Of a stretch of 64,000 bases of DNA, positions 7,223-63,494 are shown piece by piece. The DNA is from Bacteroidia bacterium. GTDB taxonomy: Bacteria > Bacteroidota > Bacteroidia > UKL13-3. Position numbers and translations under genes: made by a program. The stretch spans positions 53,871-117,870 of the forward strand of contig JBAYTR010000005.1 in the NCBI GenBank assembly GCA_041675505.1, given 5' to 3'. The first letter of the stretch is position 1. Every line of letters starts with the position of its first letter. The notes beneath the pieces were generated by a model. It was not told the origin of the DNA and did not search any database. It saw only the letters and a program-made list of their open reading frames with translations.

Positions 7223-7319
7223 GGAGCAAAGATAAGCAGTATAGGTATTACATACTTAACAAGAGTAGGTGGATGTGAGAAATGAATCGAATTTCTGTTA
7301 TATTGCTTATCATTTTACT

Positions 7320-9227: not shown

Positions 9228-9233
9228 TGAGGA

Positions 9234-12890: not shown

Positions 12891-12953
12891 GTTGCAATTG
12901 CAACCTTTTGTGCGTAATTTTATCATGTATTAAGTCTGAAGCTGAATACCTTG

Positions 12954-15900
12954 ATGAAACACGTCTGTTCATTACTTCTGTTTTTTGCATTGAGTTTGTG
13001 CATTTACGCGCAGCCTGTTAATGATAGTTTTGCCCGCGCAGAAGAACTGATTATCCCTCAAAACGGCTACGGTACAGGGCAGTTTATTTCCAATAAAGTT
13101 CCGCTGGCAAACATTACCAAAGAACTTGGTGAAGCATTTTCCCCAATGCTGGTGAGTGCCGGTATGGATCGCAAAAGTGCCTGGTTTAAATTTACAGTAA
13201 ACAATACCCGGAGCGTAACCATTGATTTATTGCAAAAAGATACCATGGTCCCTCAAAATGCGGCCGGTTTAGCAATATATGAACGGGTAGTTGGTACGCC
13301 CAACATAGGTAACTTAAGCACTAAGCTTACGCCCATCAATAAATTCGGAAGCACATCTAACCTCTGCTTATCTCGGGGAGAATATTATATTCAACTTTGT
13401 GCCAGACATTATGCCACTGATACAGCTTGGATTAAAATAACTGTAAACATGCCGGGTTCACCCGACTATGACCAGATGAATACTGCAATGGATATGGGCT
13501 CCATAAGCGGGTATCGCACTACTTCATTGCAAGTTGGTTGTTTAAGTATAACCAACGAGAAAGAGTTTTTGCCATTAATTGGCAGTGATTATAAGGATTA
13601 TTCGAAGACAGCCTGGTTGATGGTGAAAACGGATAATTACACTGAAGCTTTCTCTATGTCCATGCGTGCTGCAGGTTTAGCTTATTATGGTAAGGACTCT
13701 ACCTTTTGGGGATACAGAATTTATTTTGGAAATATGGTAAATAACCCGACAGGATTAACTTGTATTGATTCAGGGGCAGTATACATAAGGAAGGGTAACT
13801 ACTTTAATAAACAAATAGACAGCGTTTGTAAATTATTGCCATACACATATTACACTATTCAGTTAATCTTTCATAAGAATGATGATTATACAATTTCTTT
13901 AGCCTTTCAAGAAGCGGGAAGTCAGCGATCGACTTCGTACCATCCTGCATATATTCCCTCTTCTCACAAGTTGGGGAGTTTGCCTATAGCACAAGGAGTT
14001 ATAACATCAGATTATTTTTCATGCGATGCCTTACTCAAAAATAATCTATGTGGTACAATTTCTCGAGGTTTTGTTGACGACAGTATTTTTACATCGATAT
14101 GGAATCCCGTAGATCAGAAATTTGACAAGATTTTTCAAAAAAACGATTCAATGCATCTCGGTCTGTGGTTTACATTTAAGCTAACACAAGATGGTCTGCT
14201 TGATATACATTCTCAAATTTATAGCTCCTCGGTATACAGAACTGCAAAGTGCATTCAGTTGTTTAAAGGAGATGCATCTATTAACTGCTATCTTTCATTG
14301 ATAGCCACATTAAAAGGTTATGGTGAGAACTTGTGTTTGAAAGCAGGGGAATATAGTGTTTTAGTTGTGGATGGTAAAAATGATGTCTACGGTATTCCTG
14401 GTTATCTTGGTTCTAATGTGATTACAAATTTATATTTTGTTCCTCTGGCAAAAGAAATTACCGCCTTTCATGATGAGCCGAATTTGGCAGATACCTTGGG
14501 TAATCTTTCAATTAAATTGGATGCATCTCCGATAGCAACTTTTGATACCAAGGAGTACAATGCCGGAGGCACAACAGATTCAGCAGTAATCGGAGGAAAG
14601 AATCTGTATGGTAGATTCACATACACTTCGTTTTATTTTGACCGTCCAGAATTGATTCGCATTGGCTTGTTTTCTGGAACAGGGAAAAAGCGTTCACCTG
14701 ATTACTATGTTATGGTCAAAGGGAAAGCAGTAGATATAGAGGATGCCTCCTGTCGTATCCCGTCTAAATACGGAGTTTTTGAATCACCCGGTTCATTCAT
14801 CTCTACCTGTCATTCTCTTGACTCAGGATGGTATACCCTTGTTGCTCAAAGTTCAACAGATTCATGTATTGAGTTTCCAGTTGGTTTCGGATTCAGAATA
14901 TGGCGTATTACACATATCACCACGCCTAACTATAATCAACCTCAAAAGGCACTGCTGGTTAATAGTGGTCAAGCACTTAGCTGGGCACCCAATAGCGGTA
15001 CTCCACAATTTCCAAAGACAAAAGCGATTTATTCAACAGGAGATCATTATTTCAATTGTATCCCAGATACCCCTTTTGCTGTTATACCAGGTTGCCAGCC
15101 ATCTTTAATAAATAACCAGCTGTTGCAAATTAATTATTATGTTTTCCAAATTGCGGAGAATAATACTTCGCTCAAAATCAGGACAAAGGATTATCTCACT
15201 AACTATCAGTCTTTTTTCGTACAATACTATCATTTGTTTAAGGGTAATTGTCTATCTAATTCTACCTTATTCGATGATACATTGAACAACATTTCTGCTT
15301 GTCAAGGTACTGTCACATATTGTGACCTTTCAGCTGGGTGGTACACGTTGGTGGTATATATGCCTAATACCATGGTGCCGCAATTAGCCAATTTTTATTT
15401 TGTGGTTGATAAACAGTATGTATCGACTTTTGATTATGCCTATAATAGTTACGATCTTGGTATGATTCCTCAGAATAATTCTGAAATAAAGTCGGCTCCA
15501 GATTTTTTCAGTTGTCGAACGGGTGCTGATACTAATAATATTGGTATGCATGCAAGTATACAGAGACCAAGCGGGAAGCCTGATTTTGTTCATCAGGATA
15601 ATGCAATCCCCAAAAATATATGGTACACATTTCAGGTTACTGGTACTGGCGATATCACAATAAAACCTTATGCTTATAAATACAATGGTGAGTATAATCC
15701 CTTTTCATATCAGGTATTTGTCTCCGATGATACCACAGGTCTGTCGTTTAATCAGCTAAAATGTGCTTCAGGCATAGACTCTACACTACAGCAAGGTTTA
15801 AAACGGGTAGCGCAAAATGGTGGGGCGATGTCAGACGGCACACCATCTTACATAACTTTTTCTAAAGCAGGGTGTGAAACCAGAAGGTATTATGTTTTGG

Positions 15901-21327: not shown

Positions 21328-24015
21328 TTAGTTATCGTAGCCCAGATTAGGTGACAGCCACTTTTCAATGAAAGCCACATCTTTCCCTTTTCTTTGAGCG
21401 TACTCTTCTATTTGGTCTTTGTTTATTTTTCCAACACCAAAATATTTACTTTCAGGATGACCGAAATAAAAACCACTCACGCTGGCTGCGGGGTACATGG
21501 CAAAACTTTCTGTTAACGTAATACCTGCATTTTTTTCTGCCTGCAACAAGTCAAATAACAAACGTTTTTCTGTATGATCAGGACAGGCCGGATAACCCGG
21601 TGCAGGTCTGATGCCACGATAGCTTTCTTTAATTAACTCTTCAGTAGATAAGTGTTCTTCCTTGGCGTATCCCCAATATTCCCTGCGAACCAGTTCATGC
21701 ATTTTTTCTGCAAATGCTTCAGCAAGTCTGTCGGCAATTGCTTTAATCATGATGCTGTGGTAGTCGTCATGGTCTTTCTCGTATTGCTCCACTAACTTCT
21801 CTATGCCTATGCCTGTGGTTACAGCAAATCCGCCCATGTAATCCGTAACCCCTGTTTCTTTGGGAGCTACAAAATCGGCTAAGCAATTGTAGGTTTGTCC
21901 TTCTGCTTTCTCGCTTTGTTGACGTAAGAAATGGAAAGTATGTTTTTCATTGGCTGAAGTGTGGAGTTCAACATCATCTCCTACGGCATTAGAGGGCCAA
22001 AAGGCAATAACGGCTTTAGCCTGAAGAAGATTTTTTGCTATCACCTCATCCAGCATTTTGTTGGCATCGTTAAACAATTTTTGCGCTTCCACACCAACTA
22101 CTTCATCTGTTAGGATTTTCGGGTAACGGCCGGCCAATTCCCAAGTCATGAAGAACGGGGTCCAATCAATATAATCGCGCAATTCACTTAGAGGGAAATT
22201 ATCAAACACCTTCACTCCGGTAAAGCCGGGAGCAACTATATTTTTAACATCAACGTTAATTTTATTTGCACGGGCTTTTTCCAGCGATACAAAGTTTTTT
22301 TCGCGTTTGCGGTTTTTGTAATCTTCTCTGAACTGAGCATACTCTGCTTTTAAGTTGGCCTGAAAAGCAGGTCGGTTTTCTTTGCTGATGAGGCTTTGTG
22401 CTGCGGGTACACTCTTACTTGCATCCAGTACATGCACTACCGGACCACTGTAATTCTGATCAATTTTAACCGCTGTATGAACTCGAGAAGTGGTAGCTCC
22501 GCCAATCAGCAACGGAATATCCATTCCCAGCCGTTCCATTTCTTTAGCTACGTGAACCATCTCATCTAAACTGGGAGTAATTAAACCACTCAGGCCAATT
22601 ACGTCTGCTTTTTCAGCTTTGGCACGTTCCAGTATTTTATCAGCAGGTACCATTACGCCCATATCAACAATTTCAAAGTTGTTACAAGCCAGCACAACGC
22701 CAACAATGTTCTTTCCTATATCGTGCACATCACCTTTTACGGTAGCCAGTAAAATTTTTCCTTGTCCGCCACCTGCTGCTGCTCCGGCTAAACGTTTTTC
22801 TTCTTCCAGGTAAGGTGTTAAATAGGCTACAGATTTTTTCATAACCCGCGCACTTTTTACTACCTGAGGAAGAAACATTTTTCCTTGCCCGAATAAGTCG
22901 CCCACTATGTTCATACCAGCCATCAGCGGACCTTCAATCACATTAAGTGGCTTACCGTATTTTTTTCTGGCTTCTTCAGTATCTTCATCAATGTACTCTA
23001 CAATACCTTTTACCAAGGCATGGCTTAGTCGTTCCTCAATGGTGCCTTTGCGCCATTCCTCATCAATTACTTTTTCTTTGCCTTTACCTTTTACTTTCTC
23101 TGCATACTCCAGTAGTTTTTCTGTGGCATCATCCTTTCTGTCCAGCAAAACATCCTCTACATACTCCAGTAGTTCTTTGTCAATTTCATCGTATACTTCC
23201 AGCTGGCTGGGGTTAACTATGCCCATATCCATACCGTGTTTAATGGCATGGTACAAAAATGCTGAGTGCATGGCTTCACGCACTTTATCGTTACCACGGA
23301 AAGAGAAAGAAACATTCGACACACCTCCGCTTATTTTTGCTCCGGGCAGGTTTTCCTTAATCCATTTGGTTGCTTTGAAAAAGTCAATAGCATTTTGACG
23401 GTGCTCTTCCATTCCGGTGGCTACCGGGAAGATGTTGGGGTCAAAGATGATATCACCTGCGGGGAAGTGAACTTTTTCAGTTAATATTTTGTAAGCACGT
23501 TCAGCAATTTCAATTCTGCGCTGGTAGTTATCGGCCTGGCCAACTTCATCAAACAACATTACAATTACAGCTGCCCCAAAACGTTTTACAATTTTGGCCT
23601 GGCGGACAAATTCTTCTTCTCCGCCTTTCATGGAAATAGAATTCACCACGCATTTACCTTGCACACATTTTAATCCGGCCTCAATAATCTCCCATTTACT
23701 GGAGTCAATCATAACGGGAACACGTGCAATATCGGGCTCAGCCATAACAAGGTGAAGGAAACGGGTCATGGCTTCTGCGCCATCAATCATTCCCTCATCC
23801 ATATTGATGTCTATGATTTGTGCACCGCCCTGCACTTGTTCTCTGGCAACATCAAGCGCTTCATCAAAATTCCCCTCTTTAATCAATCGAAGAAATTTCT
23901 TTGAACCGGTAACGTTGGTGCGTTCTCCCACATTAATGAAATTGGAGCCTTCAAAAATGACTAGAGGTTCGAGTCCTGATAGTTTGAGGGTATAGTTTTG
24001 AGCAGTATTGGTCAT
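21328..24015 (-). CDS. metH: Methionine synthase, C-terminal polypeptide (pterin-binding, B12-cap, B12-binding and AdoMet-activation domains) of a split MetH
   Basis: 'GERTNVTGS' and '[13 protein letters not shown]' mark the pterin domain. '[15 protein letters not shown]' is the DxHxxG B12-binding motif, and an activation domain follows. The start is taken at internal 'MTNTAQNY' to avoid overlap with the upstream receiver gene. Confidence 0.9.
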
Positions 24016-24031
24016 AGAAAAATTGGTGTAA

Positions 24032-24418
24032 TTAAACGTGGTAAACAGCAGAGAGTTTTTCAAAAAGTTCTTCGGGTTTAAACGGCTTGGTGATAACATC
24101 ATTTATGCCGGCCGTCTTAGCATTTTCCTGTGTGTCGGAAGAAGCATCTGCCGTAAGTGCAAAAATGGGAGTGGTGGTATTGAATTTTCGTATTTCAACA
24201 GAGGCTTCAATTCCATTCATTACGGGCATATACATATCCATCAAAATAACATCATAAGTTCCTTCCGTACATTTATCAACGGCTTCTCTGCCGTTTTTTG
24301 CCACATCCGTTATCACCCCCCAGCGCTGCACAAATTTGGTAAGCACCAGTATGTTCATGTTATCATCTTCAGCAATAAGCATACGTAAACCGGTCAGGTC
24401 GTTTTTTACTTCACTCAT
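24032..24418 (-). CDS. Stand-alone response-regulator receiver (CheY-like) domain protein
   Basis: The 128-aa protein has 'LIAEDDNMN', '[14 protein letters not shown]', 'ALTA' and 'KPF', which are all the canonical REC residues. There is no output domain. Confidence 0.85.
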
Positions 24419-24442
24419 ATTATCTTCTCGTCAGTAAATGCA

Positions 24443-25462
24443 TTAAGAATTTGAAACTACAGCAGATTCAATTTTGCGCGGTTGATATTTTGCAGCCATC
24501 TCAGCTATTGCTTTAATGTGATCGGGTGTGGTTCCGCAGCAGCCCCCCAAAACGTTCACTAATCCTTCTTTGCAAAATTCTTCCACTTGCTTGGCCATAG
24601 CAGCGGGACTCTCGTCATATTGCCCCATTTCATTTGGTAAACCGGCATTGGGATATGCACTTACATAATACGGGGAGTTGTTGGCCATTACCTGCAAATA
24701 TGGTCTTAAAGCACTTGCACCTAAAGCACAATTTAATCCTATACTTAGTAAAGGCATATGTTGCATGCTGATAAGAAAGGCTTCTGTAGTTTGTCCGGAT
24801 AGTGTTCTTCCCGATGCATCGGTTATGGTTCCACTCACCATAATAGGAATACGTTTACCTGTTTCTTCAAATAATTCGTCAATAGCATACAATGCTGCTT
24901 TGGCATTTAGAGTGTCAGTGATTGTTTCAATCAGCAGCAGTTCAACTCCACCATCAAGCAAGCCCTTTGCCTGTTCTTTGAAAGCTACTACTAATTGGTC
25001 GAAAGTAACGGCTCTATATCCGGGGTTGTTTACATCTGGTGACATTGATGTAAGTTTTGTTGTTGGACCCATTGATCCCGCAACATATTTGGGCTTGTGG
25101 GGTTCCTTAGCTGTAAATGCATCTGCCACTTCGCGAGCAATTTTTGCTGATTGGTAGTTAATCTCATATACCAAAAAACCAAGTTCGTAATCTGCCTGCG
25201 CAATACTTGTGCTACCAAAAGTATTGGTTTCAATAATGTCTGCTCCGGCTTCCAGGTATTGTTGGTGAATGGCTTTTATAACATCAGGTCGCGTGATAGA
25301 TAATAAGTCGTTGTTCCCTTTGAGGGATAGTGGGTGATTCTTTAACTGTTCGTTTCTGAAATCATCTTCTTCCAAATGATACCGCTGAATCATGGTTCCC
25401 ATAGCGCCATCCAGTATAAGGATACGTTTTTGAATAATGTCTTTTATATTGGGTTTTGTCAT
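24443..25462 (-). CDS. metH: Homocysteine S-methyltransferase domain protein (N-terminal polypeptide of the split MetH)
   Basis: The 339-aa protein has '[10 protein letters not shown]', 'DIIETNTFG' and a C-terminal '[11 protein letters not shown]' zinc/Hcy-binding motif. Confidence 0.85.
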
Positions 25463-25520
25463 TGCCTGTTTATTTTCTTATCGCGATTGACTTCGTGACA
25501 GCAGGCAGTTAAAAAATAAC

Positions 25521-25632
25521 TGCTCATCTGTATACGAAACAGTAATTTCGTATTAGGAGTTGGCACCCGTCACTTGCCGGGTTGCCAAGACTTCACAGGG
25601 CCTATTCCCTCTGTCTTTCTTGATAAGCGTGG
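25521..25632 (-). promoter_or_regulatory. SAM-I riboswitch in the 5' leader of the split metH operon
   Basis: The reverse complement reads 'CGCUUAUCAAGAAAGACAGAGGGAAUAGGCCCUGUGAAGUCUUGGCAACCCGGCAAGUGACGGGUGCCAACUCC...ACAGAUGAGCAG'. This matches the SAM-I consensus (P1 'CUUAUC'/'GAUGAG', 'AGAGGGA', 'GGCCC', 'GGCAACC', 'GGUGCCAA..CC'). Confidence 0.85.
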
Positions 25633-43156: not shown

Positions 43157-45577
43157 TTAGATGGTCCGTCTAATTTCGGAAATTCTACGTTGAATACTCA
43201 ATAAAAATCCGATAATCATCACAATAGTACCGCCCCACAGGAAGTTGATGTAAGGAAATACAATGGCTTTCATGATGATGAAATTTTTGCGCGGACTACG
43301 TTCAGCAGTCTCTATCAGGATGTGTTCTGTTTTAGGGTCGATGTTCATAAAACGAAAACGCAGTCCGGTTTCATCGCTCACTTTTTCAATGCTTACTATG
43401 CCGTTACCCTCAATGGCGTAAACGGGTTCAACGGTGTAGGTACTGTCCAAGGTTACTATACGTATTTTTGCGGCTACGGCTAAATCAACATTAGCCAATT
43501 CAGGCGAACTGCTGCGGTCAACCTTGGTGTGTAATCCGTCAAAGTAAACCATGCCGTTGTTGGTACGTACACTGTCGCCTTGTTTCAACTCGTGTTTCTT
43601 TTCGTTGTGGAAAGGCGCATCATTTTCTTCGTTCTTCTTAGGAACTGAGCTTACATACGTGAACACATCATGCGATAAATAGTGTCGAGTATCCGGGTTG
43701 GCAATAAAGCCCATCTTCGGATTAATTTGTCCGTTGGGATAAAGCATAAAGGTGTTTTTTACATTCCCTTCTTTATCCAACTGTTCATAACGCACCTTGT
43801 AGTAAATATTTACCCACTTACTGGAGTCGCCTAAATAGGTTACCCGGTAGTTATTCATGTCAACAGGCTTACCTTGTTCCAGGTAAATATTTTCGTAATT
43901 CTCGCGCACGGTTTTCTGATCTTCACCATCAAAAAATGCTTGTCCGGTATTGTTGCGCGAAATCACATTTTTATTGGCTGAAGAAACCAATACACCTATG
44001 AGCATAAGCCCGAAACCGATGTGGGCCACAGATGCTCCCGATACTTTTATCTTGCCCTGAATAAACGGCCAGGCGGTTTTAAAGTTAACCACAATAGTGT
44101 AAACGGAGGCAAATAATAAAATGAAGTACAGCCAATTATTTAACCCGAACCACCAAAAAGCCATGCCGGTTAACACCAATGAAATACTTCCGAGCACAGC
44201 AGCCTCTTTCCAGAATTTTTTGCTGTCGGTTTTCAGGTACTTGAGTAATTGTGCTGTTGCAGTTAGCAAAGCAATCAGTATAGCGATGGGCAATTGCCAT
44301 TTGTTGTAGTGAGCAATTACATCAGTAGGAGGGGCCATGTTACTGCCAAATACTTTATTGATAACGGGCAGGGAAGTGGTAAGTATAATTTGGAAGGCAG
44401 ATACAATTAATACCAATGCACCTATGAACATCCAGAACTCACGTGAGTAAGCATTTTCTTCTAAGGGAGTTGTAGGGATTTTTTTCCAGTGTACCACCAT
44501 AAGCACTATGGCCAATACAAGGAACATAAGCAGAAATACCAGTAGTTGTCCGCTCATACCTAAGTCGGTAAAGGAGTGTACAGAGGAGTTGCCCAAAATA
44601 CCGCTGCGGGTTAAGAACGTAGCATACAGCACCAATACAAAACTGGTAATCACCATAAGGTAACTGAAGTGCAGGGCCGTTTTGCGCGCTTTGTAGATGA
44701 GCATGGTATGTACCGCACCAATAAGAATTAACCAGGGGATAAGTGAGGCATTTTCTACGGGGTCCCAGGCCCAGTAACCGCCAAAACTCAATGATTCATA
44801 GGCCCAGAAACCGCCCATAATAATGCCGGTTCCCAATACCATTACTCCAATGAGTGCCCAAGGCAAAGCAGGCTTAATCCATTCGGTATATTTTTTCTGC
44901 ATCAAGGCTGCCATGGCATACGCAAACGGAACAATGGTACAGGCAAAACCAAAGAACAAGGTAGGCGGATGAATTACCATCCAGTAATTTTGTAACAGCG
45001 GATTTAAACCATTGCCGTCTTTAATGCGGGTAAGGTAATCGGGCATGCTGAAAACAGGGCCGCTTTCATTTACTATCCGCATCAGTTCAAACGGACTGCT
45101 GCCTAATTTGTAGCCGAAAACTTTAACTCCGATAAGCATGGAGGTAAGTGCAATTTGCGAAAGGCTGAGCACAAACATGACGGGGTATTTCCATTCTTTG
45201 GCAGTAAAGAGCAGAATTAATCCCAGTACCATGTGCCAGAAAATCCACAGCAGAAAACTTCCTTCCTGACCTTCCCAAAAGCAGGAAATCATATAATACC
45301 AAGGCAAGTCGGTTGACGAGTGCTGCCAGGCATACTGGTACTCGAAGTAGTGGCTGTAAATTATATAGAACAGGGAAGCTACAATGCTCAGCACAGCGGC
45401 TGCGTGTAGGTAAAAACCAATTACGGCAGATTTACCCCAACCGGTTTCATCGGGTGAGCGAAAGGCTTTGAAAAAAGCGGCACTGCTGAATATGGCTGTG
45501 GCAAAGGCGAGAACTACTGAGAAATGACCCAGATTTCCGGGTAACAAATGTTCTCCTTCAAAAATAATTTCCTGCAT
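43157..45577 (-). CDS. ccmF: Cytochrome c-type biogenesis protein CcmF-like (heme lyase, WWD family)
   Basis: The 806-aa polytopic protein has a WWD motif ('GGYWAWDPVENASLIPW') and conserved His residues flanking it. Confidence 0.75.
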   Translation of the reverse strand: MQEIIFEGEHLLPGNLGHFSVVLAFATAIFSSAAFFKAFRSPDETGWGKSAVIGFYLHAAAVLSIVASLFYIIYSHYFEYQYAWQHSSTDLPWYYMISCFWEGQEGSFLLWIFWHMVLGLILLFTAKEWKYPVMFVLSLSQIALTSMLIGVKVFGYKLGSSPFELMRIVNESGPVFSMPDYLTRIKDGNGLNPLLQNYWMVIHPPTLFFGFACTIVPFAYAMAALMQKKYTEWIKPALPWALIGVMVLGTGIIMGGFWAYESLSFGGYWAWDPVENASLIPWLILIGAVHTMLIYKARKTALHFSYLMVITSFVLVLYATFLTRSGILGNSSVHSFTDLGMSGQLLVFLLMFLVLAIVLMVVHWKKIPTTPLEENAYSREFWMFIGALVLIVSAFQIILTTSLPVINKVFGSNMAPPTDVIAHYNKWQLPIAILIALLTATAQLLKYLKTDSKKFWKEAAVLGSISLVLTGMAFWWFGLNNWLYFILLFASVYTIVVNFKTAWPFIQGKIKVSGASVAHIGFGLMLIGVLVSSANKNVISRNNTGQAFFDGEDQKTVRENYENIYLEQGKPVDMNNYRVTYLGDSSKWVNIYYKVRYEQLDKEGNVKNTFMLYPNGQINPKMGFIANPDTRHYLSHDVFTYVSSVPKKNEENDAPFHNEKKHELKQGDSVRTNNGMVYFDGLHTKVDRSSSPELANVDLAVAAKIRIVTLDSTYTVEPVYAIEGNGIVSIEKVSDETGLRFRFMNIDPKTEHILIETAERSPRKNFIIMKAIVFPYINFLWGGTIVMIIGFLLSIQRRISEIRRTI

Positions 45578-45586
45578 GTTCGGGGT

Positions 45587-45979
45587 CTAAAGTTCTCCGG
45601 GTTTTTGTCCTTCCGTGTATTTAGACGGGCATTTCAAAAGTATTTGTGAGGCTTCGAATTCGTCTTTGTTCAGGGCTTTGCCCACGATCACAATTTTTTC
45701 AGAACGTTCGAAATCCTGCGGTTTGGTGTTGTGGTATATCACTTTCATTTCCATGCCTAAACTATCCTGCATATAAAAACTGAAGTGATTTGCGTCTTTT
45801 TCGGGATTATATTCCAGCGGTTTATCGCGGTTAAGTGTGCCAATAACGTGGTATTCTGAGCCCATGTTTTCCACTGCTGTATCAAAGGCTACGTAAGTGC
45901 TGCTGTCTCCATAAGTACTTACAATGGCACCAATAGCAGCGGCAATAAGAACAATGGCAATAATGTATTTGAGCTTCAT
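45587..45979 (-). CDS. ccmE: Heme chaperone CcmE, CxxxY variant
   Basis: N-terminal anchor plus OB-fold. The C-terminal 'ILLKCPSKYTEGQ' aligns with the canonical 'VLAKHDENYTPPE', so the heme-binding His is replaced by Cys. Confidence 0.65.
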   Translation of the reverse strand: MKLKYIIAIVLIAAAIGAIVSTYGDSSTYVAFDTAVENMGSEYHVIGTLNRDKPLEYNPEKDANHFSFYMQDSLGMEMKVIYHNTKPQDFERSEKIVIVGKALNKDEFEASQILLKCPSKYTEGQKPGEL

Positions 45980-46000
45980 CGTATATTTTCTGTTGTCTGA

Positions 46001-46225
46001 TTAACTTTTACCTGTAGGAATTTGTTTTTCGATGCGCCCCACTTTTCGGTCAATAAAAAGCAGGTACACCACAATGCCGGTAAAAATTACAGCAATTACA
46101 GCAACCACCACCATCAGCTTGTTGTCAGAACCTTCAGCTTCAGCGGCTGCACTGCCGGTAACAGATAATATATCCAGATTTGGAATGTGAAACAGACTTA
46201 AAAAAAATGCGATCACTGCTTTCAT
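46001..46225 (-). CDS. CcmD-like small membrane protein
   Basis: 74 aa with a single TM helix. Sits between ccmC and ccmE. Confidence 0.45.
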   Translation of the reverse strand: MKAVIAFFLSLFHIPNLDILSVTGSAAAEAEGSDNKLMVVVAVIAVIFTGIVVYLLFIDRKVGRIEKQIPTGKS

Positions 46226-46227
46226 AA

Positions 46228-46902
46228 TCAGTTGTCGTTTAACGTTTGTTCAATCTTTTTAATTCGAACGCGAATTGTCGCAATCCACGTGCCAAGAAGC
46301 GTCCATCCGAGCACTGCGGGATAAAAAACCATACGCATGTTGCTGTCTAAATCGTATTGGTTAAATCCCGGGTTTCCTCCGTTGCCGGGGTGAAGTGAAG
46401 CGGTAAGCCTCGGTAATACAAATATCAACACCACAAAAACGGGGAATGCAAATATATTGTAAACGGCTGAAATTCTTGCTCTTTTTTCCACATCTTCTAA
46501 AGCATCTCTCAACACTGTGTAAGCTAAATAAATCAGCATGCCAATGGCCGCGCTGTTCAGCTTGGGGTCATTGGTCCACCAGGTGCCCCAGGTATTTTGG
46601 GCCCAAATCATACCGGTGAGTAAACCCAACACTCCGAAAAATATCCCTGAAAAGGCCAGTTGTGAAGCAATAATGTCGTATTGACGCTGGTTGGTGCTCA
46701 GGTAAACAATGCTGTAAACGGTAGAGGCCAGCAGCAGCAGTAACATACTGAACCACATGGGCACATGAAAATACAGGTTACGGATGGACTCTTCCAGAAT
46801 GGGTAAATGGGGCACCGGACCCGTAAGTCCTTGAAAGATGGTGTAGTAGAGTAAAACCACACACAGTATTTTCCACCAGTGTTTAGCCATAAAGCGGTGC
46901 AA
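46228..46902 (-). CDS. ccmC: Heme exporter protein CcmC
   Basis: The 224-aa protein has six TM helices and the WWD-like 'WAQNTWGTWWTNDPKLN'. Confidence 0.65.
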   Translation of the reverse strand: MHRFMAKHWWKILCVVLLYYTIFQGLTGPVPHLPILEESIRNLYFHVPMWFSMLLLLLASTVYSIVYLSTNQRQYDIIASQLAFSGIFFGVLGLLTGMIWAQNTWGTWWTNDPKLNSAAIGMLIYLAYTVLRDALEDVEKRARISAVYNIFAFPVFVVLIFVLPRLTASLHPGNGGNPGFNQYDLDSNMRMVFYPAVLGWTLLGTWIATIRVRIKKIEQTLNDN

Positions 46903-47037
46903 AGTTAGCCAATGCAGCTAAGTATGGAAATGAAAAGAGGAAATTAATTTTTAATGCGAAGCGGAGCTCAGTGCAGCTGATTCTTAATGAATACTCAATC
47001 ATTCAACATTAAGAATTAATCACTCAACATTAGCCCC

Positions 47038-47697
47038 TCAGTCTTTCCATATAAAAGGAAACAGGATGTAAGCCAGAACCGCGATAATGAGGTTGATGAG
47101 CAGTATAACAGAAAAATCCTGGTAGAAGGTAGTATAGTCCAATCCGTCAACGGCTTTTTTTGCTACTTTAATGGTGACCAGCAACAACGGAATGATTACC
47201 GGAAAACTCAGAATGGGCATAAGCACGTGGCTGTTGTTGGCCTTGGAAGCAATGGCCGAAACCATAGTAAAACAAGCGGCCAGCCCCATACTTCCCAGGG
47301 TTGCTGTAAGGGTAAAGGCCCACATGTTCTGAATAATGTTGCCGATAAGGGTGCAATACACCAGCAAACACAACAGGCTCAGCACAAGCATGAGCAGTGT
47401 GTTGTAAATCATTTTGGAAAGTATGATGCCTTGCGCACTGGCAATGGTGTAATAATACAACATGCGTCCGCGGCTTTCTCCGATAAAAGATTTGGCCACG
47501 GCACTCACACTACTGAACAGCATGATAATCCAAAACAGCGCGTTCCAACTGGCGGGATTGACTACATGAAAAGAAAGGAAAGCCACAAATACAGAAGATA
47601 TTACGTAGAGCAACATCCCGTTAATGGCATAACGCTGTCTCCACTCGGTGAGTAGTTCCTTCTTCAGCAATACGCTTACTTCATGCTTTAAAGTCAT
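47038..47697 (-). CDS. ccmB: Heme exporter permease CcmB
   Basis: The 219-aa polytopic protein sits at the head of the ccm cluster. Its length and topology are CcmB-like. No ccmA is adjacent. Confidence 0.55.
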   Translation of the reverse strand: MTLKHEVSVLLKKELLTEWRQRYAINGMLLYVISSVFVAFLSFHVVNPASWNALFWIIMLFSSVSAVAKSFIGESRGRMLYYYTIASAQGIILSKMIYNTLLMLVLSLLCLLVYCTLIGNIIQNMWAFTLTATLGSMGLAACFTMVSAIASKANNSHVLMPILSFPVIIPLLLVTIKVAKKAVDGLDYTTFYQDFSVILLINLIIAVLAYILFPFIWKD

Positions 47698-57704: not shown

Positions 57705-57869
57705 GTGTGCTTACAGTGGGATAAAATTACTTCTACGGGCTTACAATTGCATCATCAGTTGGCAGGTAAATTTCAACGCGTTAAACAGCAACTGTTTGTA
57801 TTTTTTGTTTGGAGAAAAATAAAACTCTCCCTTTCTTCGCATCCGTTACTCGGTTCTTAGTTCATATAA

Positions 57870-58060
57870 TTTGAACAAAAGATTAATAGGGAATCAGGTG
57901 TAAATCCTGAACAGTTCCCGCTGCTGTAAGTTTCTGCAACGCAAGTTGCAACCTGTTGCCAGCCTTTACGTCACTGTTCACCTTTGGTGGATGGGAAGAC
58001 CGGACAACTGGGGAAATGAGTCAGAAGACCTGCCGCAATAACACAAGTGCATGTAGCTTT
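57870..58060 (+). promoter_or_regulatory. Cobalamin (AdoCbl) riboswitch
   Basis: 'AATAGGGAATCAGGTGTAAATCCTGAACAGTTCCCGCTGCTGTAAG', then 'CACTG..GGGAAG', then the B12 box 'AGTCAGAAGACCTGCC'. It lies about 110 nt upstream of the TonB-dependent receptor. Confidence 0.9.
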
Positions 58061-58171
58061 CGGGAAAAAAGCATAAGGCGTTCTCGGTTCAACCCATTAT
58101 GGTATTACCGTAATTAATCGCAACGAGCAGTCTTTGTTATTTCCTTTGGCTACAGCAATAACTAACGGTTT

Positions 58172-60154
58172 ATGCTGAACGAAAAATACACATGCGACTC
58201 ATTTCAACTCAGGTTACTATTAACCTTACTGAGTGTTGCCTGTGCTGTGTTCCATACCTCAGCACAAACTGATTCCTCCAAACACATACCTGAGGTGACC
58301 ATTACAGCCGTGCGCGGGGAACAGTTGCAAACAGGTGCCAAGGTGCAACAATTTACTCCCGCACAGTTACGTGCATTTGCCACAGCTAACCTGGGCGAAC
58401 TACTTTCAGCCAACACTCCGGTGTTTATTAAAAGTTACGGACCGGGTAGTTTAAGTAGCATTTCTTTTCGGGGTACAGGAGCCTCGCATACCGCAATTGT
58501 GTGGAACGGGTTTAACCTGCAAAGTTCCATGAACGGGCAAACTGATTTGTCCATGTTTCCCATAGGCACCTTTGATGAGGTGAGGTTGCAGTATGGCGGC
58601 AACAGTGCTTTGTACGGAAGTGGTGCAATTGGTGGCAGCATTTATTTGCGCAACACAGCTGCCTTGGTTGATTCACCACAGATGCACTTGGTCTTGCAAG
58701 CCTCTTCGGGAAGCTTTGGTACACAGCAATATTTTGGCAGCTACGGTTATTCAGGCAAAAGGTTTAGTACACAAGTGAAATATTACCGCAATAACTCAGA
58801 TAATAATTATTCTTTTACCAATACCGCAGCTTTTCAATCTCCTGACGTAAAACAAACACATGCGGCCTTTACCCAACAAGGTGTAGTGTTGAATGTCGGT
58901 GGGAGCGTGTCTAAATATACCCGCATCAATGCGTATTACTGGTGGCATAACAACCAACGCGATTTGCCGCCTACTATGTTGCAAAGCACTTCATTGGCTA
59001 CACAAGCGGATGAATCACACCGGGCAGCGATTGATTTTACTTATGGTCGTAACAAATGGCAAAGCATTTTACGCAGCGGATTTTTTCTGGAACAACTTCG
59101 CTACAGCGACCCGATTGCTGGTATTGACAGTAAAAATCGTGCAGTCAATTGGGTGAATGAGTTGGAGCTTTCTTATACCGTTTCACCGATTCTGAAAGTG
59201 ATATCGGGGGTAAACTTTACCACCATCAATGCATCTTCACCCGGCTATTCATCAACTGCTTCTCCTTCCCAAAACAGAACAGCCATTTTCGCAGCTGCCA
59301 GATGGGGGAAGCAAACAGCAGCCTCGCGTTTTAAATCAGACATCTCGGCACGTGCTGAAAATATTTCGGGAGTTTGGGTGCCCGTTACCTTCAGCTTCGG
59401 AACGCAGACAAGGGTAGCTAATAATTTGCACTTTCATACTTTGGTATCACGCAATTACCGTTACCCAACGTTCAATGATTTGTACTGGCAACCCGGTGGC
59501 AATTTACAACTGAAACCGGAGTACAGCTTTAATGCGGAAAGCGGATTGAACTATGTATACACTTTATCAAAGCATCAGTTCAAAGCTAACGTAACGGTGT
59601 TCAGTCATTGGGTTGATAACTGGATTATCTGGATGCCTGATTCCGTTAACCCCAACGTGTGGACTCCCAACAACGCAGCCGAAGTGTGGAGCAGGGGAGT
59701 AGAGTATGGTTTGGGTTATACCTGGCAGCCGAAGTTAAACACAGCTATTTCGGTAAACGCGTTGTATACGTGGCAGCAAGCCACACACGAGAAGGTGGCC
59801 TTTGCAGGAGATGCTGCTTTGCACCGTCAGTTAATTTATATGCCGAGACAAATGGGCTCGTTGCAACTGAGTGTGCAACACAAAAAGTGTCAATTCAGTT
59901 TTCAGCAAGTGTATAACGGTTTGCGTTTTACCAGCAGCGACAATTACAATTACCTGCCAGCATTCTGGTTAAGCAGTGCTCAGCTGTCCTACACCTTTCA
60001 ATTGAAAAAATATCCTGCCTCGGCCCGTGCGTTTGTTTCGGCAAAAAATATGTGGAATGAAAATTACCAGGTGATGTTGTGGCGAGCCATGCCGGGGCGC
60101 TACATAGAAGCAGGTTTACGATTGGAATTACAACATAAAATTAAACATCAATAA
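58172..60154 (+). CDS. btuB: TonB-dependent receptor, probable corrinoid transporter BtuB
   Basis: Signal peptide and plug domain ('VTITAVRGEQL', 'SISFRG'). The C-terminal barrel ends '...RLELQHKIKHQ'. The preceding cobalamin riboswitch supports the BtuB assignment. Confidence 0.75.
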   Translation: MLNEKYTCDSFQLRLLLTLLSVACAVFHTSAQTDSSKHIPEVTITAVRGEQLQTGAKVQQFTPAQLRAFATANLGELLSANTPVFIKSYGPGSLSSISFRGTGASHTAIVWNGFNLQSSMNGQTDLSMFPIGTFDEVRLQYGGNSALYGSGAIGGSIYLRNTAALVDSPQMHLVLQASSGSFGTQQYFGSYGYSGKRFSTQVKYYRNNSDNNYSFTNTAAFQSPDVKQTHAAFTQQGVVLNVGGSVSKYTRINAYYWWHNNQRDLPPTMLQSTSLATQADESHRAAIDFTYGRNKWQSILRSGFFLEQLRYSDPIAGIDSKNRAVNWVNELELSYTVSPILKVISGVNFTTINASSPGYSSTASPSQNRTAIFAAARWGKQTAASRFKSDISARAENISGVWVPVTFSFGTQTRVANNLHFHTLVSRNYRYPTFNDLYWQPGGNLQLKPEYSFNAESGLNYVYTLSKHQFKANVTVFSHWVDNWIIWMPDSVNPNVWTPNNAAEVWSRGVEYGLGYTWQPKLNTAISVNALYTWQQATHEKVAFAGDAALHRQLIYMPRQMGSLQLSVQHKKCQFSFQQVYNGLRFTSSDNYNYLPAFWLSSAQLSYTFQLKKYPASARAFVSAKNMWNENYQVMLWRAMPGRYIEAGLRLELQHKIKHQ

Positions 60155-60156
60155 TC

Positions 60157-61128
60157 ATGAGAAAAACAACTTTACTATTTTTATTCGCTATTCTTTCTGC
60201 GGCAGTTTCTGCTCAAACAGTTGCCAATTTTGAAAATATCACCTTACCTGTCGACAGCTTTTGGGATGGCCGATATGACCAGCAGGCCAAAGGTTTCAGC
60301 AGCGGTAATGCCTTTTTTACCAACATGTGGGATACCTCTTTCGGTGGTTTTTGGGCAGATGGTTTTGCCTGCAGCAATAAAAAAGATACCATCAATGGAA
60401 CCTATACCAATAAGTATTCAGCCATTACTGCCGGTGGCTACAACGCCTCAGCCAACTTTGTTATCGGTCAGCAAAACGCCATAGTGCGTTTAACAGGAAA
60501 CGGAGCAGGTAAAGTAGTGGAAGGTTTTTATGTAACCAACGGAACTTATCCTTACAGCACCATAAAAAACGGAGACAGTTTTTCGAAGAAATTCGGTGGT
60601 GTTACCGGTACTGACCCTGACTTCTTTTTACTGCATGTAGTGGGTTGGCACAACGGTACATTAAAGAACGATACCGTTAAATTTTATCTGGCAGATTTCC
60701 GCTCAACAGACAGCAGCGCTGATTATATCGTAAAAGACTGGCGTTGGGTTAACCTTACTTCACTGGGTAATGTGGATAGCATTAAACTATTTATGACTTC
60801 TTCTGATGTGGGCCAGTGGGGAATTAACACCCCGTTGTTTTACGCCATAGATAATTTTACCACACGCGATATTGCCGCAAGTGTTGCTCCAGTGAAAACC
60901 AACCTTGTTGCTGCGTATCCTAATCCGTTCACTACACAAGTTAGTGTTGCCGTTGAGGTAGCTTCATCTATAGTGCTGTTAGATATCAATGGGAGAGTAG
61001 TATTAAATGAAACCATTTCTGACGCAGGGAAAATCACGTTAAATACCGCTGAAATTGCCGCAGGAATTTACTTTATTCGTGTAAGCAATGTTTACGGACA
61101 AAGCACACAAAAATTAATCAGGTACTAA
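60157..61128 (+). CDS. DUF4465-like (BtuH-like?) protein with a T9SS C-terminal sorting domain
   Basis: The N-terminus 'AQTVANFENITLPVDSFWDG' resembles DUF4465 starts as I recall them. The C-terminal 'AYPNPFTTQVSV...GIYFIRVSNVYGQ' is a type-A T9SS CTD. Confidence 0.5.
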   Translation: MRKTTLLFLFAILSAAVSAQTVANFENITLPVDSFWDGRYDQQAKGFSSGNAFFTNMWDTSFGGFWADGFACSNKKDTINGTYTNKYSAITAGGYNASANFVIGQQNAIVRLTGNGAGKVVEGFYVTNGTYPYSTIKNGDSFSKKFGGVTGTDPDFFLLHVVGWHNGTLKNDTVKFYLADFRSTDSSADYIVKDWRWVNLTSLGNVDSIKLFMTSSDVGQWGINTPLFYAIDNFTTRDIAASVAPVKTNLVAAYPNPFTTQVSVAVEVASSIVLLDINGRVVLNETISDAGKITLNTAEIAAGIYFIRVSNVYGQSTQKLIRY

Positions 61129-62132
61129 TGCGTTTTTACAGTCTGTTTTTTATACTTCTGTTGAGCCTTGGCGGAGCAAATGCACAATTTGCTCCGCAGG
61201 TTGGCAGGCCCGGTTCTACCGCCATTCACAAGGACAATGTGTTGTTTGTGAACTGGGCACAAACCTGCACCGTTAATCGCGGTTACCAGCATGCAGGTAA
61301 TCCGTCTTTGGGTTATCCTACCGTGGGCGATTCGTCTATGGCCGTTGGCAAAGCGGGCACTAACGGAGTGGTGAGTCTGGGAGATGGTGGAAATGCAGTG
61401 CTCACTTTTTATCCTGCTATTAAAAACAAAGCCGGATATGATTTCGCAATTTTCGAAAACGGTTTTCAGTTTATTGCTGATTCAGGTTTGGCGTTTTTGG
61501 AATTTGCTTTTGTAGAAGTGAGTTCAGATGGTCAGTACTTTGTTCGTTTCCCCGCAATAAGTAATATAGATACAAGCGTTCAATGTGACCCTTACGGCAT
61601 CAGCGATGCAGCCAAAGTAGATCAACTGGCCGGTAAGTACGTGTTTCCTTACGGCACCCCGTTTGACTTAGAACTATTGAAAGACACACCGGGTTTAGAT
61701 GTTAACCGCATCACACACATTCGTTTAGTAGATGTGGTGGGCAGTATTGATGCACCCTATGCGCAGCGTGATTCACGCGGAATTATAGTGAATGATCCCT
61801 GGCCCACTGATTTTCCCAACTGTGGTTTTGATGTGGATGCGATAGGAGTGATTAACCAGAACGATCCTAACACTGTGGAGGAAACACTTCAACAGGCACT
61901 TGTTTTATACCCTAATCCTTCTGCAACTCATGCTGCGGTGCGATTACATTTGCCCATGTGGAATATGCCTGCACAGGTAAAAGTCTATGACATCAACGGA
62001 AAAATGGTATTGACCCAACAACTCAACCATGCGGGTGATTACCTCCAAGCTGCTGCATTACCCAAAGGAATATTTTTGGTAGAAGTCGAACAGCAAGGTA
62101 TCACTTACCGCTGCAAATGGATGATTCAATGA
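61128..62132 (+). CDS. Secreted protein of unknown function with a T9SS CTD, in the B12 operon
   Basis: Signal peptide. The C-terminal 'LYPNPSATHAAV...GIFLVEVEQQGITY' is a T9SS CTD. Confidence 0.5.
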   Translation: MRFYSLFFILLLSLGGANAQFAPQVGRPGSTAIHKDNVLFVNWAQTCTVNRGYQHAGNPSLGYPTVGDSSMAVGKAGTNGVVSLGDGGNAVLTFYPAIKNKAGYDFAIFENGFQFIADSGLAFLEFAFVEVSSDGQYFVRFPAISNIDTSVQCDPYGISDAAKVDQLAGKYVFPYGTPFDLELLKDTPGLDVNRITHIRLVDVVGSIDAPYAQRDSRGIIVNDPWPTDFPNCGFDVDAIGVINQNDPNTVEETLQQALVLYPNPSATHAAVRLHLPMWNMPAQVKVYDINGKMVLTQQLNHAGDYLQAAALPKGIFLVEVEQQGITYRCKWMIQ

Positions 62133-63163
62133 GTTCATTTCGTCTGTTGTTTTTGCTTTCAGTTGCACTAACGGTATTTGCCTGTAAAGAAGAAATTCCG
62201 CAAGCACCTGAATTGCCTTCAGCACAAAGTAACCGTTTGGTGTACGTAATTAACGAGGGGAATTTTCAGTGGGGCAATGCTACCATCACCCGCTTTGATC
62301 GCATCAGCAAACAAAAAACGCACGATGATTTTTTTGAAAGTGCCAACCAACGCCCTTTGGGTGATGTGGCACAATCCATCACCTTTCACAACGGATTGGG
62401 GTATCTCGTCATCAATAATTCCTCTAAAATTGAAGTAGTAGATTCCACCACGTTTGTTACCAAAGGTGTCATCAGCGGATTGACTTCACCGCGTTACCTG
62501 TTACCTGTGGGAGGCAATAAAGCCTATGTAACCGATATTTATTCCAACTGCATTTGGGTGGTGAATCTGAATACGCGTACACTCATTAAAACCATTCCTT
62601 GTCGCGGGTGGACGGAAGAGTTGCTTTTGCACAATGGCAAAGTATGGGTTACCAACCTGCGCACCAATTACCTCTATCGCATCAATCCGGTTACAGATAT
62701 TATGGAAGATAGTGTGTTGCTCGGCTTTCCCGCAGGTTCTTTAGTAACGGATGCCGGCAATAAATTGTGGGTATTGTGCAGTCAGGTTTTGCAAGCCAAT
62801 GCGCCTTCCCGTTTGATGCAACTCAACGCACAAGGTACGCAGGTACTCAAAATATTTGATTTGGGCACGGGAGCAGGAAAGGTGTTGCGCACCAACCCCG
62901 ACCGCACGCAGCTCTACTGGATAAAGGGCCACATTTACAGCATGCACATCACTGCTGATTCACTTCCTGTTGCTCCTTTAATAACCAAACAGTCGGGTGA
63001 AAATTTTTACAGTTTAGGAATAGATCCTGTGAGCGGAGAGATTTATGCAGGCGATGCACTCGATTATGTGCAGAAGGGAAACGTGAAATGTTTCACTCCT
63101 GCAGGAGCATTCATCACCTCATTTAAAGCGGGTATCACACCGGGAAATTTTGCATTTAATTAA
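62117..63163 (+). CDS. Beta-propeller (YncE/YVTN-like) surface lipoprotein, a candidate BtuG-like B12-binding protein
   Basis: Lipobox 'LTVFAC'. Repeated 'YV.N.G' blade motifs ('LVYVINEGNF', 'KAYVTDIYSN', 'KVWVTNLRTN'). It overlaps the upstream gene by 16 nt. Confidence 0.5.
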   Translation: MDDSMSSFRLLFLLSVALTVFACKEEIPQAPELPSAQSNRLVYVINEGNFQWGNATITRFDRISKQKTHDDFFESANQRPLGDVAQSITFHNGLGYLVINNSSKIEVVDSTTFVTKGVISGLTSPRYLLPVGGNKAYVTDIYSNCIWVVNLNTRTLIKTIPCRGWTEELLLHNGKVWVTNLRTNYLYRINPVTDIMEDSVLLGFPAGSLVTDAGNKLWVLCSQVLQANAPSRLMQLNAQGTQVLKIFDLGTGAGKVLRTNPDRTQLYWIKGHIYSMHITADSLPVAPLITKQSGENFYSLGIDPVSGEIYAGDALDYVQKGNVKCFTPAGAFITSFKAGITPGNFAFN

Positions 63164-63494
63164 GATGGAACACAAAACCTGTGAACGTTGTGAAGCTGAG
63201 TTTACCTGCAATGTATCGAACATCAGCAATTGCTGGTGCATGGATGTGCAGGTAAATGCTGCGGCTAAAGGAGTGATTGCCGCCAGCTACAACGATTGTT
63301 TATGTGAAAAGTGTTTGAAAGAAATTGCTTTAGAAACGGCCGATAAGCCACTTACCCGGGAAGAATTGAAACCCAACGAACATTATTATTACAACGAAAA
63401 AGGCTTAATGGTGCTCACCGCCACCTACCTGTTACGTAGAGGTTACTGCTGTGAAAACGGCTGCCTGCATTGCCCTTATGGGTTTAGGAAGTAA
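63150..63494 (+). CDS. Cysteine-rich 'CWC'-type small protein (11 Cys in 114 aa)
   Basis: 'CERCEAEFTC...NCWCMD...CLCEKC' plus C-terminal 'GYCCENGCLHCPYGF'. It is translationally coupled to the beta-propeller gene by a 14-nt overlap. Confidence 0.5.
   Translation: MHLIKMEHKTCERCEAEFTCNVSNISNCWCMDVQVNAAAKGVIAASYNDCLCEKCLKEIALETADKPLTREELKPNEHYYYNEKGLMVLTATYLLRRGYCCENGCLHCPYGFRK

Follow-up and report, generated by a model that had tools for sequence, protein, structure and literature searches.

A cobalamin-riboswitch operon of the BtuBG type in an uncultured Bacteroidia bacterium carries type IX secretion tails on its BtuJ-family and BtuH-like proteins

Does a five-gene operon behind a cobalamin riboswitch in an uncultured Bacteroidia bacterium encode a corrinoid scavenging module of its own kind, or a variant of the B12 uptake systems described in gut Bacteroides? 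The question is raised by 64,000 nucleotides (nt) of contig JBAYTR010000005.1 (assembly GCA_041675505.1, positions 53,871 to 117,870), referred to here as the window, in whose coordinates positions are given. A first reading made from the DNA alone (the sequence-only reading) had described a textbook cobalamin riboswitch followed by genes for a TonB-dependent receptor, a DUF4465-like protein, a further secreted protein (here 'P3'), a beta-propeller lipoprotein and a cysteine-rich protein, and had taken them for a B12 or other corrinoid scavenging module specific to this lineage. In the public record, a metagenome-assembled genome of an uncultured 'Bacteroidia bacterium', the genes are labelled merely 'T9SS type A sorting domain-containing protein' or 'DUF5074 domain-containing protein'. 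Our analysis indicates that the locus is probably a corrinoid uptake operon of the Bacteroidota BtuBG type, switched off with adenosylcobalamin via a class-I-like riboswitch, and thus one form of a known system that recurs widely.

The leader matched the Rfam family RF00174 (Cobalamin) with 86.5 bits (gathering threshold 31.5, E = 6e-20) over model positions 1–189 of 189. The aptamer contains an L5 loop UUCCCG and the B12 box AGUCAGAAGACCUGCC; position 57870, at which the sequence-only reading had let the locus begin, falls within the aptamer that starts at 57834. On the 3′ side of the B12 box lies a hairpin (GCUUU-CGGGAAA-AAAGC, approximately 58055–58073), the loop of which (CGGGAA) is complementary to L5. 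Classical adenosylcobalamin riboswitches are arranged with an L5–L13 kissing loop, and the hairpin loop is the predicted kissing-loop partner of L5. The CGGGA hairpin was visible in roughly 48 of 60 related leaders (counted by eye), with stems that vary in sequence yet keep pairing (ACUUU/AAAGU, CCUU/AAGG, GUCUU/AAGAC). Behind a second, longer hairpin (approximately 58069–58138), a stretch rich in U is found some 35 nt ahead of the ATG, with a similar arrangement in many relatives. This suggests that a ligand response of the leader would act through transcription attenuation, with occlusion of the start site as the alternative. A scan for sigma-70 promoters and intrinsic terminators, which is ill-suited to Bacteroidota, gave fewer sites than in shuffled sequences. 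From the end of the aptamer to the first gene, the leaders of the related loci L002–L081 clustered at approximately 100–150 nt with a median of 119 nt; in the window the distance is 119 nt (Rfam aptamer end). This tight spacing suggests that the architecture of the expression platform is conserved across the phylum.

The first gene product contains a Plug domain (Pfam), and all of its ten PDB matches at E ≤ 1e-5 were B12 transporters. Best among these were Bacteroides BtuB chains of BtuBG complexes (7e-47 to 5e-46), of which 8bmx_C aligned to residues 33–646 (E = 1e-46); BtuB1 from B. thetaiotaomicron followed at 8e-26 and BtuB from E. coli at 1.7e-10, the latter in the plug region only. As judged by these relatives, the protein is a BtuB of the Bacteroidota type. 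The fourth gene product matched the solved BtuG chains over its whole mature length (residues 40–347, E = 1.7e-51 to 2.8e-49, best 8bmx_D of BtuG2), in addition to PF16819 DUF5074 (46.9 bits, threshold 27.2) and a YVTN repeat. Its N-terminus, MSSFRLLFLLSVALTVFAC-KEE, comprises the lipobox VFAC followed by K and acidic residues. A lipobox with a subsequent K and acidic residues is the pattern of the Bacteroidota signal for surface export of lipoproteins. A lipobox was found in 40 of 42 BtuG homologues, and none of the 42 carried the C-terminal domain (CTD) for the type IX secretion system (T9SS) that is described below. The fourth protein is thus assigned as BtuG, a predicted surface lipoprotein and putative lid of BtuB.

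The second gene product was assigned to PF14717 DUF4465 with 149.3 bits (threshold 25). Its PDB relatives were 9hmu (1e-14), 9fct (BtuJ1, 8.7e-13) and 9i2l (BtuJ2, 4.6e-5), with D5EK51 among the best. DUF4465 corresponds to the BtuJ family of high-affinity B12 binders (PMC13398666, PMC13616437). Binding of B12 has been demonstrated for eight divergent members, one of them from the flavobacterium-related Fluviicola, and co-location of the family's genes is reported at 55% for the Plug domain of TonB-dependent receptors and at 40% for DUF5074 propellers (PMC13398666). The signal peptide of the second gene product ends in AVSAQ with no lipobox Cys; hence, the protein is without the lipoprotein anchor of B. 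thetaiotaomicron BtuJ1 and BtuJ2. By family membership it is a BtuJ-type protein that would be expected to bind B12.

All five genes are encoded on the plus strand behind the riboswitch (Table 1). With the first possible start codons, a gap of 2 nt is followed by overlaps of 1, 16 and 14 nt. In this case the fourth open reading frame (ORF) starts at an upstream alternative ATG (62117–63163, 348 amino acids) and the fifth at an alternative TTG (63150–63494, 114 amino acids). In the public annotation of the same contig, these two genes begin at ATG 62129 and ATG 63165 instead, resulting in an overlap of 4 nt and a gap of 1 nt; these starts were preferred because the fourth protein then has a clean lipoprotein signal. 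The five genes are tightly coupled whichever starts are used. According to the public gene calls, the block is preceded by a gene for a DNA polymerase of the Y family and followed by one for a peptidase S8, both of them on the minus strand, and it is therefore a self-contained five-gene unit. The sequence-only reading was accordingly right about the riboswitch and the packing of the five genes, essentially right about their spacing, and right about the domains it had named, since DUF4465, two Por_Secre_tail domains, YVTN/DUF5074 and Cys_rich_CWC were all recovered by Pfam and NCBIfam searches.

Table 1. Features of the riboswitch-headed operon, in window coordinates.
Feature	Position	Strand	Basis of assignment
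Cobalamin riboswitch aptamer	57834..58052	+	Rfam RF00174
Expression platform	58053..58171	+	Sequence and predicted fold
btuB, corrinoid TonB-dependent outer-membrane transporter, 660 aa, signal peptide	58172..60154	+	Plug domain, PDB matches
DUF4465/BtuJ-family jelly-roll protein, 323 aa, Sec signal peptide, T9SS type A CTD	60157..61128	+	PF14717, PF18962, PDB
'P3', 334 aa, signal peptide, BtuH-like beta-sandwich (predicted), T9SS type A CTD	61128..62132	+	Pfam, predicted structure
btuG, seven-bladed beta-propeller lipoprotein (predicted)	62129..63163	+	PF16819 DUF5074, PDB BtuG, public start codon
Cys_rich_CWC-DUF5522 fusion, 109 aa, without signal peptide	63165..63494	+	PF14375, PF17653

The N-terminal domain of P3 (residues ~20–250) belonged to no Pfam family, and none was found for this domain in 58 family members scanned. 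Its structure was predicted with AlphaFold from 58 homologues (predicted local distance difference test score, pLDDT, 91.9). Foldseek with the two-domain P3 model was uninformative. When the N-terminal domain model was compared with solved structures including BtuG and BtuH, as the sequence-only reading had proposed, the best matches were 8blw_B (BtuG1; score 12.3, 3.0 Å, 155 aligned residues, 17% identity) and 7biz_B (BtuH2; score 11.7, 2.6 Å, 151 aligned residues, 15% identity). CBM32/discoidin domains came next with scores of 9.0 or less, about 123 aligned residues and mostly 7–9% identity. The two top chains have nothing in common but the BtuH B12-binding domain, a domain that was published as being without known structural homologues (PMC8941943). 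The N-terminal domain of P3 was therefore concluded to have the BtuH fold, and we regard it as a probable remote BtuH homologue on the grounds of this model. Invariant residues of P3 are W43, D105, F106, F109, E110, N111, F113, E125, R140, Y171, D180, D202 and D235. A match of P3 to the NCBIfam 'LIC_13355 family lipoprotein' was weak (23.8 bits, cut-off 120), and no weakly P3-like paralogues that could be BtuH lipoproteins were found among the ORFs of the 80 loci described below.

The distribution of the locus was analyzed by searching contigs of one genome per species with patterns of the P3 N-terminal domain, which matched at least 600 stretches, of which at least 551 were confirmed. The counts of P3 loci refer to the best 80, in which neighbours were identified by phmmer and riboswitches by an iterated nhmmer profile; taxon labels are those deposited, some of which are doubtful. 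The P3 family thus extends to the genomes of at least 551 Bacteroidota species. Of the 80 loci, 59 had a same-strand cobalamin riboswitch upstream, corresponding to 59 of the 73 with upstream sequence present. When 17 loci were examined with Rfam the riboswitch was confirmed in 16, among them every one of the nine with the gene order of the window. This order, BtuB-DUF4465-P3-BtuG, was found in 20 of the 80 loci, and in three of these a CWC or DUF5522 gene came last (L015, L035, L079). The same-order loci are labelled Cytophagaceae, Flavobacteriales/Flavobacteriaceae, Bacteroidales, Chitinophagales/Chitinophaga, Sphingobacteriaceae and Saprospiraceae. Permuted orders were common too (DUF4465-P3-BtuB-BtuG, P3-BtuB-BtuG, P3-BtuG-CWC). 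Locus L072, from the cultured Taibaiella chishuiensis, contains DUF4465-P3-BtuG.

These results bear directly on the proposal that the locus is a lineage-specific corrinoid module with accessory proteins of another kind than BtuG and BtuH in Bacteroides. The two T9SS tails and the CWC/DUF5522 protein are indeed missing from the published B. thetaiotaomicron loci, and the N-terminal domain of P3 has no Pfam family. In this respect the content differs from the known arrangement as the sequence-only reading had stated. Against a difference in kind, the propeller is BtuG, the DUF4465 protein belongs to the BtuJ family and the predicted fold of P3 is BtuH-like. Since the same order recurs behind cobalamin riboswitches in at least six family- or order-level label groups, and P3 in hundreds of genomes of the phylum, lineage specificity fails; the proposal in this form is largely refuted and we consider it very improbable. 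Its assignment of the operon to B12 or corrinoid scavenging under riboswitch control was upheld, since neither of the outcomes named in advance as refuting it, matches to unrelated families and a gene order that does not recur, was observed.

A deviation from the gut systems is found at the C-termini of the two candidate binders. PF18962 Por_Secre_tail was detected in the DUF4465 protein with 42.3 bits and in P3 with 35.9 bits (threshold 27), and TIGR04183 with 44.2 and 39.4 bits, respectively (threshold 23). The type A sorting domain occupies the extreme C-terminus in both (residues ~254–321 of the DUF4465 protein and ~258–334 of P3), both proteins carry a Sec signal, and the modelled P3 tail superposes on solved CTDs. 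In a survey with a CTD profile made from the P3 alignment, tails were found in 78 of 80 P3 homologues and in 36 of the 37 DUF4465 proteins encoded nearby, a prevalence that is biased upward because the query by which the 80 loci were ranked contained the tail. Genes lying between riboswitch and P3 in other loci encoded a T9SS tail in all five cases scanned, and DUF4430, which we take to be related to the transcobalamin beta-domain, in two of the five.

Two types of such intervening T9SS-tailed proteins were distinguished, all encoded on the plus strand. The first has a conserved N-terminal DA(S/T)ID..(I/V)(Q/R)YWIGEG (L010:7222-7983, L016:7222-7983, L050:6796-7995, L062, L070, L074) and is found in loci mostly labelled Bacteroidales; the members scanned with Pfam (L010, L050) contain DUF4430. 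The second has 420–570 amino acids and an N-terminus like QVII.(N/S)GG (L046:6635-7903, L058:6199-7899, L066:6622-8001, L071:6658-7941, L032:2596-3897); in the proteins of L046, L058 and L066 Pfam matched nothing besides the tail. The QVII-type proteins may be further corrinoid-capture components. In the window itself, two large PKD/Ig-repeat proteins, one of them of 1760 amino acids, end in CHU_C domains (2–2113 and 12951–18233, plus strand). With these two other T9SS cargo proteins, the organism very likely has a T9SS, and the two tailed operon products would depend on it.

An alternative is that P3 is no corrinoid binder and would be a T9SS-secreted glycan-binding or adhesin module of the CBM32/discoidin type, co-regulated with B12 uptake for another reason, for instance, for attachment to B12 producers or particles. 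The structural comparison argues against this role, since the chains with a BtuH domain scored clearly above the CBM32/discoidin domains, with about 30 more aligned residues and approximately twice the identity. P3 was moreover the sole recognized gene behind the riboswitch in 13 loci (Rfam confirmed the riboswitch in seven of eight checked), and the upstream neighbour in other loci was itself T9SS-tailed, with DUF4430 in both of the five that had a further Pfam match. Finally, a natural DUF4465-P3-CTD fusion of 570 amino acids (P0056), with DUF4465 at residues 79–248 and a single T9SS tail, joins P3 to the B12-binder domain and therefore indicates a functional link between the two binders. 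An adhesin is accordingly an unlikely identity for P3, for which a function in corrinoid binding is favoured. Apart from this fusion, single ORFs were observed in which an N-terminal Cys_rich_CWC runs into the signal peptide, N-terminal domain and T9SS tail of P3 (P0052, P0065, L018:5195-6487; at least three different sequences). They may be genuine fusions, or result from the loss of a stop codon or from faulty gene calling; a fusion would be odd because CWC has no export signal.

The fifth gene product consists of PF14375 Cys_rich_CWC (47.1 bits, threshold 24) and PF17653 DUF5522 (67.8 bits, threshold 25), both uncharacterized families. Twelve cysteines are invariant or nearly so, eight in CWC (CxxC-x5-C-x7-CxC...CxCxxC) and the remainder in DUF5522 (CC-x3-C-x2-C). 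Relatives were found neither in PDB nor in NCBIfam, a 36-sequence profile included, and full-text searches for the CWC/DUF5522 families gave nothing beyond one gene table. A family search yielded 2622 representative proteins at E ≤ 1e-3; roughly one third of the best 150 span both domains, and the fusion is therefore a family in its own right. In P0186 and P0197, CWC matches the C-terminal half of proteins of ~100–120 amino acids, and some proteins have two matched stretches; the CWC and DUF5522 modules may also occur in reversed order.

The association of this protein with B12 uptake was assessed from two sides. CWC, DUF5522 or their fusion adjoins P3 in 16 of the 80 loci; in several of these the two genes make up a unit of their own, and that of L009 is located behind an Rfam-confirmed riboswitch. 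Metagenome loci were in addition sampled by a DUF5522 pattern, which samples DUF5522 and not CWC, giving 40 loci in which the upstream sequence extended over 3 kb or more. A same-strand upstream cobalamin riboswitch was present in eight of the 40, mostly in the arrangement riboswitch-BtuB-(BtuG)-DUF5522, which is far above the expectation for genomes that have only a few such riboswitches each. The cobamide biosynthesis cluster of Sulfurospirillum includes a gene for a cysteine-rich CWC protein, located between cbiA and sirC and induced together with the cluster (PMC7755780). Each of these points argues against the view that the fifth gene is a passenger at the 3′ end of the operon, that is, a small protein of the zinc-finger or Fe-S type that would have a general housekeeping or regulatory function and no part in corrinoid handling. 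That view draws on the stand-alone DUF5522 genes beside bolA or purB-like genes, on the approximately 80% of DUF5522-seeded loci that had no riboswitch nearby and on the lack of homology to characterized proteins; we hold it for a possibility to be reckoned with, while leaning the other way. The link of CWC/DUF5522 to corrinoids is recurrent, not exclusive. Being cytoplasmic and rich in cysteines, the fifth protein is probably metal- or Fe-S-binding, and our guess, made with low confidence, is that it serves as a helper for incoming corrinoids. One of the stand-alone DUF5522 genes (L082:5666-6192, unclassified bacterium) is divergent from an adjacent bolA, a weak hint at Fe-S or redox biology.

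Several observations weigh against the assignment of the locus to a BtuBG-type uptake operon, or against parts of it. The first gene product stayed far under the cut-offs of the NCBIfam BtuB equivalogs (TIGR01779 and NF007926; 101 bits versus 599.7 and 65.7 versus 836), which are proteobacterial models. In the HI-loop motif NTPLFY of the DUF4465 protein, Phe occupies the aligned Tyr position with a Tyr one residue further on, and this Tyr was reported to be 97% conserved; sampled homologues with a recognizable HI loop had Y in 17, F in 15 and V in one case. For P3, phmmer and the 58-sequence profile searched against all PDB sequences at E ≤ 10 retrieved T9SS CTDs alone and never 7BIZ or 8BLW, so that its link to BtuH is drawn from the predicted structure. 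Fourteen P3 loci with upstream sequence had no riboswitch, and the nine of them rechecked with Rfam were all negative. A Pfam scan of the 30 larger ORFs of the window gave no btuFCD, nor did the public gene calls for its last ~16 kb. With regard to the fifth gene, the large share of sampled DUF5522 genes without a nearby riboswitch and the unrelated contexts of the two stand-alone genes inspected count on the same side.

The closest characterized systems are the Btu loci 1 and 2 of B. thetaiotaomicron, in which a BtuB-BtuG core is accompanied by BtuH, BtuJ, BtuK and BtuL (PMC10404256, PMC8941943, PMC13616437). Riboswitch control, BtuB, the BtuG lid, a DUF4465/BtuJ protein, the BtuH fold (predicted for P3), organization in one operon and extracytoplasmic signals are common to both. 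Unlike their B. thetaiotaomicron counterparts, the BtuJ-like and BtuH-like proteins of the window carry a Sec signal and a type A CTD in place of lipid anchors, and the BtuH-like domain lies at the N-terminus, is accompanied by neither a PKD nor a propeller domain and shows no detectable sequence similarity. The gene order is B-J-H-G in the window versus B-G-L-H-J in B. thetaiotaomicron, and the operon lacks BtuFCD, BtuK and BtuL and adds the cytoplasmic CWC-DUF5522 protein. With the non-gut DUF4465 binders (D5EK51, Fluta), the second gene product shares the Pfam family and the NTP-aromatic motif of the HI loop, with Phe in place of the canonical Tyr; the members described are lipoproteins (over 70%) or have periplasmic signals, whereas the window protein and 36 of 37 sampled neighbours end in Por_Secre_tail (PMC13398666). 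The T9SS is not mentioned in the papers on BtuJ/DUF4465, where the proteins are lipoproteins or have periplasmic signals (PMC13398666, PMC13616437). Known T9SS type A cargo (gingipains, mirolase, NucA; PDB 8qb1, 8glk) comprises mainly proteases, glycanases, adhesins and nucleases; full-text searches pairing T9SS with B12 terms gave nothing relevant and no report of vitamin-binding, riboswitch-controlled cargo. The BtuB/BtuFCD system of E. coli has in common with the window a TonB-dependent B12 transporter under a cobalamin riboswitch, and differs from it by having neither surface binders nor a lid protein and by the distant relationship of its BtuB.

For a BtuBG-type operon of this composition, the following sequence of events is proposed. 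When B12 is scarce, the leader would be open and the five genes would be co-transcribed. BtuB would be inserted into the outer membrane, where the lipoprotein BtuG would cap it as a B12-binding lid. The DUF4465/BtuJ and BtuH-like proteins would be exported by Sec, after which the T9SS would recognize their CTDs and the proteins would become surface-attached or released. Corrinoids captured by the two binders would be passed on to BtuG and then to BtuB, with the inner-membrane step catalyzed by a BtuFCD encoded elsewhere. The product of the fifth gene would most likely handle the imported corrinoid by reduction, de-ligation or chaperoning, which is a guess.

Elsewhere in the window, Rfam gave a single other match, an S-adenosylmethionine (SAM) riboswitch (RF00162, 76.9 bits, 25521–25629, minus strand). 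It precedes a split B12-dependent methionine synthase (MetH) on the minus strand (within 21328–25629), composed of a protein with a homocysteine S-methyltransferase domain (24443–25462) and a protein with pterin-binding, B12-binding and activation domains (21328–24102), with an ORF of 128 amino acids between the two parts (24032–24418). Since it encodes a B12-dependent MetH, the organism uses B12. No Pfam family was matched at E ≤ 1e-5 by three ORFs in succession at 7269–10181 (plus strand; 336, 315 and 315 amino acids), which may be paralogues of one another or form a small operon. A cytochrome c maturation cluster (CcmF-like, CcmC-like, CcmB; 43157–47697, minus strand), ~10 kb upstream of the operon, is unrelated to it.

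Three traits of the operon appear to be undescribed: the T9SS tails that replace lipid anchors on BtuJ- and BtuH-like binders, the BtuH-like family that has no Pfam model and at times stands alone behind a riboswitch, and the CWC/DUF5522 proteins as recurring cytoplasmic members of B12 uptake operons. A more far-reaching idea, which we put forward tentatively and would not yet bet on, is that P3 represents a large unannotated family of T9SS-secreted corrinoid binders, remotely related to BtuH and spread over hundreds of Bacteroidota species. Together with tailed BtuJ and DUF4430 proteins, and at times encoded by a single gene under riboswitch control, these binders would give environmental Bacteroidota a secreted or lipopolysaccharide-anchored 'corrinoid-hemophore' layer, and CWC/DUF5522 proteins would be a new class of cytoplasmic factors of corrinoid processing that contain a metal or Fe-S centre.

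The extracellular B12 relay from BtuJ via BtuH and BtuG to BtuB has hitherto been described in gut Bacteroides, where all surface components are lipoproteins. Our results suggest that Bacteroidota from soil, from freshwater and from hosts employ the same folds but deliver them by the T9SS, in which case vitamin capture would be a function of this secretion system. They further suggest a large candidate family of B12-binding proteins, for which no domain model exists and 'T9SS type A sorting domain-containing protein' is the sole current annotation. Two uncharacterized cysteine-rich domain families, moreover, receive a testable link to corrinoid metabolism. To a specialist in B12 uptake, the extension of the BtuBG-type system across the phylum will be unsurprising in principle; it would have a bearing on the competition for B12 in environmental microbial communities.

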